From assembly GCF_002571385.2 (NCBI RefSeq), contig NW_019218103.1:305492-369491 (forward strand): DNA of 64,000 bases, in the 5' to 3' direction. Shown piece by piece: positions 57,901 through 58,564 of this stretch. The position numbers and the translations under genes are program-made. Numbering within the stretch: position 1 is the first letter of the stretch; every line of letters begins with the position of its first letter. The notes under the pieces were generated by a model. It did no database searches, was not told where the DNA came from, and saw nothing but the letters and a program-made list of their open reading frames with translations. Source of the DNA: Stylophora pistillata (taxonomy: Eukaryota).

Positions 57901-58564
57901 AATCATAATTATAGTTAAAAAAAAATTAAGCCCCATAGATTTTTAAAGAGAGTGGTAATGAGCCATGATAACGACCTGCTGAGTATAGGGAGCGAAACTT
58001 TTATGAGTTGACAGCTAAAGAAAAACACAAAAAGTGGGTCGATAAGACAAACCTGGGGTAACAACATGACGAGTTTAGTCCGAAGGTTCAAACTTTAAGG
58101 TCTCTTCCCCGACAACAACGACTGATATGGGTTTAAGGGCGGATTAAAACTCGTAGATCATTTACTCCCGCATAACTTTGCTACAGCTGTGCCTATCCTT
58201 GTTCGGGATTTCAACGTGAAGAGAAAATTTCCTAGAGCGGTCGAGTTTGGTTCAGATAGACAGGTTAGACTTTAAGTATCTCTTTTCGTTTTAGCTACCA
58301 GTTGTGGAGCTGATGTGATACGACAGATGGCTAAATTTGGTCTCGACACATCTAAGTTACAGTGCTCCACCCAAACAAGAGGTAAGCTATATTACTTTGG
58401 ATTGAAATGCCATCTTACGTGTGCCCATCATTTTGTTTTGGTCGATATCAAAGTGGACCTCATTTCTTTTATTCCCAGTCCGTCGCGGTTGTTGTGCGGC
58501 CGAGTGTGTTTGGATGGCAAAGGAACTAGGAGTGGAACCCAGTTCCCTCATCTGCCCCACATGA
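54961..58564 (+). CDS. Novel 88-aa secreted cysteine-containing prepropeptide (4 coding exons)
   Basis: Exons 54961-55009, 57446-57490, 58295-58381, 58479-58564, all phase 1, with pyrimidine-tract AG acceptors and GTGAGT/GTGAGT/GTAAGC donors. Product: MVLRGLLLMFILSSICLAVPVWEKREMRRKDATSCGADVIRQMAKFGLDTSKLQCSTQTRVRRGCCAAECVWMAKELGVEPSSLICPT*. Confidence 0.75.
56487..56845. mobile_element. MITE-like repeat with a ~165-bp palindromic end, inside an intron of the peptide gene
   Basis: AACAAATGGTGAACGCC ... GGCGTTCACCATTTGTT arms at about 56678-56844. Homologous to 27348-27753. Confidence 0.75.

Follow-up and report, generated by a model that had tools for sequence, protein, structure and literature searches.

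A conserved two-module cysteine-peptide gene in the coral Stylophora pistillata and its likeness to insulin precursors

The locus and its transcript

The window analysed here, a 64,000-nucleotide stretch of the Stylophora pistillata genome, carries a short spliced gene on the plus strand. Splice-site scanning first suggested four exons and RNA reads then confirmed them: in four of four runs, each from a different study, reads joined 55009 to 57446, 57490 to 58295 and 58381 to 58479, all across GT-AG introns on the plus strand. These reads bear out the gene model that an earlier, sequence-only reading had regarded as supported. All three introns are in phase 1, and the coding exons of 49, 45, 87 and 86 bases give 88 residues and a stop. 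The product is identical to the S. pistillata hypothetical protein PFX20358.1; the protein collection also has a transcript-derived record of it. The features are the following.

54658..54960, plus strand: conserved upstream DNA and 5' UTR, by similarity to coral contig L012; RNA contigs start at 54882
54961..55009, plus strand: coding part of exon 1, a hydrophobic ATG exon with the start codon, most of the predicted signal peptide and a phase-1 donor; joint to 57446 in 4/4 runs; matches PFX20358.1
57446..57490, plus strand: exon 2, end of the predicted signal peptide and a short propeptide with the basic sites KR and RRK; RNA joints on both sides; same exon in contigs L010 and L012
58295..58381, plus strand: exon 3, 87 nt, phase 1-1, with module 1 (C-x19-C, Cys35 and Cys55) at 58303-58365 and the start of the linker; RNA; same 87-nt exon and phases in L010-L012
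58382..58478, plus strand: intron 3, 97 bp, GT-AG, phase 1, splitting the RVRR site; 97-base skip in 4/4 RNA runs
58479..58564, plus strand: coding part of exon 4, with an RR site, module 2 (CC-x3-C-x15-C, Cys65, 66, 70 and 86) at 58490-58555 and the stop; RNA; spacing kept in 8/8 homologues
58565..58925, plus strand: 3' UTR, of this length or more, convergent with the 3' end of the minus-strand neighbour; stranded read depth and RNA contigs

In order, the precursor comprises a predicted signal peptide (the hydrophobicity of exon 1 points to this function), a propeptide, module 1, a 9-residue linker containing RVRR, and module 2. The module exons had been described as near-equal in size and 97 bp apart. 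The spacing is exactly that of intron 3; the equality holds for the coding parts (87 versus 86 nt) and not for the whole exons, since exon 4 also includes a 3' UTR several hundred bases long. In the adult run X24, the gene's joints were covered by 9-11 reads, as against 40-94 for the neighbouring COPB.

Four metagenome contigs (L010-L013) carry the gene; all end before any neighbouring gene, and the three that cover exon 3 share the phases and a similar-sized intron. Window positions 54658-55114 match positions 125-586 of L012 with 72% identity over 473 columns of upstream and first-intron DNA, which suggests conserved regulation. The coatomer beta gene COPB occupies 33943-49000 (Adaptin_N and Coatomer_b_Cpla Pfam matches); one of its introns carries a short tandem repeat near 45550-45850. 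In the portion of PMC12225738 available, the Astroides transcript STRG.11226 (XP_027048190.1) is named as COPB and table S1 includes STRG.11225; since the Stylophora cysteine-peptide gene also adjoins COPB, STRG.11225 may be its orthologue.

Elsewhere in the window, weak plus-strand transcription was seen in three raw-read runs over a 140-codon open frame at 50600-51700, between COPB and the cysteine-peptide gene. A spliced minus-strand gene lies at 58900-64000, its 3' end meeting the 3' UTR described above; from its motifs we take it to be NARF/IOP1-like, and two pieces of it scanned against Pfam gave no match. It has a GC-AG intron (62989-63495), and a further joint (61442-62026), whose ends are non-canonical, may reflect a slip in the assembly. 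Repeat elements present in many copies and deeply covered by reads of both strands lie at 56485-56850, in intron 1 of the cysteine-peptide gene, and at 60774-61206, in an intron of the minus-strand neighbour. At the other end of the window, near-identical LDL-A repeat exons of an LRP-like gene recur, together with their flanks, at 933-2338, 9936-10300 and 12430-13311 beside N gaps, reflecting either segmental duplication or an assembly artefact.

Conservation and the internal repeat

Homologues were found in Pocillopora meandrina, Oculina patagonica and Porites harrisoni (two near-identical records), in further coral transcripts and in the anemone Actinia tenebrosa (XP_031569802.1, E 1.7e-05). 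None was found outside Hexacorallia in searches that were word-based or single-sequence, which makes this range a lower bound; Actinia's, the only non-scleractinian homologue found, may be a paralogue instead of an orthologue. Statistics took 8 homologues, one per cluster or species, leaving out the near-identical members P0001, P0002, P0011, P0012, P0014-P0016, P0018 and P0019. As candidate multi-copy precursors, P0006 and P0007 (548 and 564 aa, with 5 and 4 stretches) were rejected, being unrelated repetitive ORFs that lack the Cys pattern, and P0008, a prediction that reads through an intron of a Pocillopora-like gene, was dropped.

The Cys spacings of the modules are common to Stylophora, Pocillopora, Oculina, Porites, other corals and Actinia. 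All 8 homologues compared, and the predicted paralogue described below, have exactly two modules, the two-Cys module preceding the four-Cys one. Six Cys, Trp72, Met73, Val79, Pro81 and the module 1 Gly are invariant in 10 of 10 alignment rows, as is Arg62, and the basic pair just before module 2 is kept in every row. Linker length ranges from 8 to 26 residues, being 8-9 in corals and 26, with several basic sites, in Actinia. Between Stylophora and Actinia, 2 of 19 inner positions are identical in module 1 and 9 of 19 in module 2; dN between Stylophora and two other corals is about 0.3 in module 1, against 0.06-0.08 in module 2 (21-22 codons per module, three sequences). The net charge of module 1 spans -4 to +2 while its hydrophobic positions are kept; module 2 is acidic (-2 to -3). 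Strong purifying selection acts on module 2.

No Pfam match was obtained with the exons, the precursor or the alignment, and none of 10 family members matched any family. A PDB sequence search gave nothing, or ketohexokinase (E 0.055-0.063) with no stretch that passed; in the ESM Atlas the best feature scores were 0.77 and 0.81 with TM <=0.45, which provided no lead. AlphaFold2 models show one helix per module at a mean pLDDT of 54-56, too low for fold comparison, and with them Foldseek gave no match at E 0.001, the best VIA Z was 3.1, to homeodomains, and a further fold search had no match. Because the models are of low confidence, these fold-search nulls neither support nor exclude an insulin fold. 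No description of this Cys framework was found in the non-subscription literature searched, which included the accessible parts of PMC10972341, PMC11087051, PMC9545775 and PMC12225738, nor did papers turn up there for the six accessions searched or on insulin together with internal duplication. Five short motifs searched in 12 of the 31 supplementary files of PMC11087051 gave matches that, as far as shown, all lay in receptor sequences. Provisionally, we regard the family as undescribed.

The sequence-only reading had proposed that the two modules stem from an exon duplication and align without gaps on a shared pattern, C-x-A-[DE]-x-[IV]-x5-[FL]-G-[LV]-[DE]-x-S-x-L-x-C. Both 21-residue stretches (58303-58365 and 58493-58555, plus strand) fit it, and in Stylophora 4 of the 19 inner positions are identical. 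The similarity exceeds chance. When the two modules were compared as weighted profiles (8 homologues, end Cys excluded), the score was 6.2 against a shuffled mean of -17.1; only 24 of 200,000 column shuffles did as well, or 647 of 200,000 if shuffling preserved the hydrophobic/polar pattern, and register shifts of 1-4 columns gave -11.7 or lower. With hhalign the modules aligned over 22 ungapped columns at a score that 0 of 150 Cys-fixed shuffles reached. By species, the module similarity was uneven, being equalled by 25 (Stylophora), 43 (a further species), 470 (Actinia) and 9,911 (Porites) of 200,000 shuffles. The window's six frames hold 658 equal-length Cys-to-Cys pairs within 1 kb or less; 57 score at least 15, of which 56 belong to LDL-A/EGF repeats or to a DNA tandem repeat, the remaining one being the module pair. 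A one-gap register placed on the first Cys of the CC equals or beats the ungapped one before gap penalty.

The repeat signal resides mainly in the C-terminal half, G-[LV]-[DE]-x-S-x-[LI]-x-C (366/200,000 shuffles, versus 10,478/200,000 for the first half), a shared tail that resembles a common helix-cap motif. Pattern positions 13, 14, 15, 17 and 19 hold in 7-8 of 8 homologues in both modules. Loss of the shared positions among orthologues had been named as evidence against duplication; most are kept, an exception being the position 3 Ala of module 1, which is species-specific (1 of 8). At the DNA level no similarity remains between the modules (19/57 inner bases and 3/19 third positions match), as expected if the duplication predates the coral-anemone split. 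The 1-1 phases of the module exons are symmetric, but common. Each peptide sits in its own exon, as the sequence-only reading had noted; the splicing is real, yet by itself this says little about duplication because the genome's ordinary insulin-like genes are predicted to have the same phase-1 layout.

A genome search with the Actinia protein led to a second CC-x3-C-x15-C exon, on contig C132, whose score against the family's module 2 was reached by 0 of 20,000 shuffles. Around it we predict, from sequence, a paralogue (L019, L016) with these parts.

G000:C132:277630-284210, minus strand: predicted paralogue as a whole
C132 284210-284159, minus strand: predicted signal-type exon, 5 kb further upstream of the C-x18-C exon
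C132 278974-278876, minus strand: predicted C-x18-C exon, 99 nt, phase 1-1, 1.2 kb upstream of the CC exon
C132 from 277727, minus strand: predicted CC-x3-C-x15-C exon, 98 nt

A TATA-like box and two small candidate exons (uncertain) were also seen, and one five-exon chain is open for 101 codons. The paralogue's modules resemble each other as well (153/50,000 shuffles; 2,760/50,000 with the hydrophobic pattern kept), and both of their exons begin 20 nt ahead of the corresponding Cys, where the offsets from acceptor to Cys are 8 and 14 nt in the gene of the window. This suggests that the internal duplication predates the gene duplication. Because the modules are alike beyond chance and the repeat is also present in the predicted paralogue, the two modules likely arose by an ancient exon duplication.

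Two family genes were found in the Stylophora genome. The pattern CC-x2-E-C-x-W has 8 genomic matches (6 in a reversed control), 2 of which are these genes and 6 of which lack the last Cys. Three of the five matches in the paralogue search (L015, L017 and L018) are a repeat element, and L029, which has a C-x19-C nearby, was rejected as repeat-like DNA lacking fitting splice sites. Just downstream of the paralogue lie what we take, by eye, to be a Kunitz-like exon (C132 around 276500, plus strand) and a class A GPCR-like frame (270000-271000, minus strand).

Insulin-like layout and readings of the disulfide pattern

Insulin is held together by the bonds A6-A11, B7-A7 and B19-A20. In the coral family, the Cys order C..C / CC-x3-C..C is the insulin order in 10 of 10 rows. 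The precursor layout is also like insulin's, with a predicted signal, a first chain, a linker flanked by putative cleavage sites of basic residues, and a second chain; the RNA-confirmed phase-1 intron between the modules lies as it does between insulin B and A, a feature that is not family-specific. The extra Cys of module 2, at -1 and +4, correspond to the CC-x3-C of insulin A chains (A6/A11 equivalents), and the Cys that align between the modules correspond to B7/A7 and B19/A20, the inter-chain pairs. Insulin-type pairing would thus join each Cys to its own duplicate and yield a pseudo-symmetric dimer. It had been suggested that each duplicated module may form a ring of its own and that the insulin likeness would then be convergent; duplication does not entail this, because a duplicated module with symmetric inter-chain bonds gives insulin connectivity. 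Duplication and insulin topology are compatible.

The reading to which we give about half of our confidence is that the gene encodes a two-chain, disulfide-linked signalling peptide released from a precursor cut at basic sites. The signal peptide would be cleaved near Ala18, and a convertase would cut after RRK and at RVRR. Cys65-Cys70 would be bonded inside chain 2, and symmetric inter-chain bonds Cys35-Cys66 and Cys55-Cys86 would reproduce the B7-A7 and B19-A20 topology in chains that are both some 7-8 residues longer than insulin's. Each chain would form a short helix ended by Gly and followed by a returning arm; contact with the receptor would fall to chain 2, which has the invariant Trp72, Met73, Val79 and Pro81, and chain 1 would act as scaffold. 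The signalling role is suggested by low copy number, purifying selection, the acidic module 2 and modest expression. The insulin receptor is an unlikely target, because the A-chain start motif is missing.

The fixed two-module asymmetry of every homologue found supports a two-chain product, and so, by analogy with the C-peptide, does a variable linker with basic sites. The extra Cys at the A6/A11 positions and the alignment between modules of the Cys that insulin pairs across chains point the same way, as does the single helix per module in the low-confidence AlphaFold2 models. Cys-to-Cys lengths are matched between the putative chains (19/19 in the gene of the window, 18/19 in the paralogue and 11/12 for insulin-like peptides); they count in the same direction because a pair tied at both ends needs them. 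The charge drift and higher dN of module 1 would fit a scaffold chain more readily than a free ligand. Against two chains, the modules show no similarity outside the Cys to the insulin-like chains of their own genome, and insulin's first A-chain helix could not form, because only 1-2 residues would precede the CC after the cut.

It is possible, though distinctly less probable than the two-chain product, that the precursor releases two separate cyclic peptides together, one closed by Cys35-Cys55 and the other by Cys66-Cys86 and Cys65-Cys70, which would act independently; the Cys65-Cys70 bond is common to both readings. The modules are homologous, basic sites flank each of them and each would have an even number of Cys. 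The predicted helix ended by a conserved Gly (8/8 and 7/8) could reverse the chain, and the eight residues that follow could lead back to the first Cys, closing a 21-residue ring, in models with a pLDDT of about 55; a helix, Gly and returning arm could thus equally join each module's own end Cys, which would favour rings. Independent ligands are harder to reconcile with a module 1 whose surface and charge drift freely beside a strongly constrained module 2, with a copy number that in the homologues found is always two and asymmetric, unlike that of multi-copy neuropeptide precursors, and with extra Cys that match the A6/A11 positions.

We consider it doubtful that this is a divergent true member of the insulin superfamily, in which the B and A chains have both grown by 7-8 residues and come to resemble each other by structural convergence, not duplication. 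Cys order, CC-x3-C, precursor layout and phase-1 introns are those of the genome's insulin-like genes. The insulin family model has 7 genome matches, 6 of them above the cut-off, and the cysteine-peptide locus is not among them. These seven loci (L003-L009) lie on G000 contigs C86, C95, C188, C594 and C641, with two pairs, spaced about 10-16 kb, on C86 and C95. Their B exons are C-x11-C in 6/6 found and their A exons CC-x3-C-x8-C in 7/7, with phase-1 donors after B (6/6) and acceptors before A (7/7) predicted from sequence. The coral family has x19 in place of x11 (8/8 homologues; x18 in the paralogue) and x15 in place of x8 (8/8 and the paralogue). Gly directly after the first B-chain Cys is an insulin-family criterion according to the accessible text of PMC8698791 and PMC12796670; in module 1 two of 8 homologues have it, both of them pocilloporids. 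The CC follows the basic site after 1-2 residues, where about five with Ile/Val at A2 would be expected; the genome's own insulin-like genes have Ile/Val at A2 in 7 of 7. None of 10 family members matched PF00049, although a canonical A exon alone passes the cut-off.

An ungapped match of module 1 to B was equalled in 2,854 of 200,000 free shuffles, which would favour a divergent insulin; the signal is lost when the hydrophobic pattern is kept (31,790/200,000) and in hhalign, where module-versus-chain scores against the genome's own insulin-like chains were reached by 48-91 of 150 shuffles (54/150 for module 1 versus B, 91/150 for module 2 versus A). Module 2 against B, ungapped, was reached by 247/200,000, largely through one Gly column, and hhalign shows no such match. 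Two independent insertions would moreover have to end alike, when canonical B and A chains are not alike (82/150 shuffles). Because four sequence criteria and the Pfam test fail, we do not file the gene as an insulin member, although the coral precursor would work like the insulin/relaxin type. The closest known systems include the insulin/IGF/relaxin superfamily (PF00049), with the genome's seven loci and the anemone peptide IlO1_i1, from the part of PMC8698791 available, and the same text reports that in cnidarian insulin-like peptides the second chain shows stronger conservation than the first, as in the insulin superfamily and here. Unlike those of insulin, the coral peptide's two chains resemble each other.

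There is a small chance that the product is an uncut single chain, a pseudo-symmetric mini-protein with three disulfides (IGF-like), or that module 1 is a folding pro-domain that is discarded. The short linker of corals and the lower conservation of module 1 would fit such a product; the basic pair kept before module 2 in all rows and the long Actinia linker with its several basic sites argue for cutting, as does dibasic cleavage in Nematostella precursors, shown by mass spectrometry in the accessible text of PMC11087051.

Little weight falls, too, on a venom or antimicrobial peptide in place of a hormone, an option that fits any connectivity. It is suggested by a short, secreted-type, Cys-rich, taxon-restricted product with a CC-x3-C start, and by the insulin-like transcripts that PMC8698791, in the part available, places in anemone tentacles. 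A finding of 2 genes only, strong purifying selection on an acidic module 2, modest adult expression (the X24 junction counts given above) and conserved upstream DNA speak against it.

The sequence-only reading had also likened the CC-x3-C of module 2 to alpha-conotoxins and the module ends to natriuretic rings, and neither likeness held up. Alpha-conotoxins have the framework CC-x3/4-C with a second loop of 3-7 residues. The coral module shares the CC-x3-C-xn-C order at the C-terminus of a precursor; its last loop, though, is 15 residues in 8/8 homologues, it is preceded by a second Cys-bearing module, it is conserved across coral orders instead of hypervariable, and a conotoxin row in the ESM Atlas scored 0.75, below lead level. 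Natriuretic peptides have a C-x15-C ring with the core residues F2, D7, R8, I9 and G10 (PMC12343078, accessible text). Cys70-Cys86, a candidate pair, is a C-x15-C stretch of 17 residues in 8/8 homologues, with Ser13 in 8/8 and Leu15 in 7/8; F2, D7, R8, I9 and likewise G10 each occur in 0/8, no Pfam match was found, module 2 has two further Cys and module 1 lacks an x15 ring. By description, the family also recalls the taxon-restricted Cys-containing secreted proteins that the available part of PMC12225738 places in coral larval neurosecretory cells, being likewise short, secreted-type, Anthozoa-restricted and with conserved Cys. Their marker Cys_11468 (XP_027054855.1) is probably a different gene, because it is numbered far from the COPB transcript STRG.11226.

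Significance for the family and for insulin

A bolder view, which we think improbable, is that the family is a sister lineage of insulin that has kept an internal symmetry lost in insulin. A C-xn-C exon module dimerising via two symmetric disulfides would have been duplicated in tandem, and the second copy would have gained the CC-x3-C pair, giving the B/A architecture. If so, the coral peptide would serve as a living example of the way in which insulin's two-chain framework came about.

At the least, reef corals and anemones share a conserved, unannotated peptide family, likely secreted and represented by two genes in Stylophora. It has escaped both Pfam and the neuropeptide screens that rely on short amidated repeats. 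To the orphan receptors, of which cnidarians have many, it offers a candidate ligand. Should the two chains be linked in the insulin manner, the geometry of that framework would be widened to a ladder 7-8 residues longer, exon duplication would be able to build it, and the origin of insulin's two chains would become testable.
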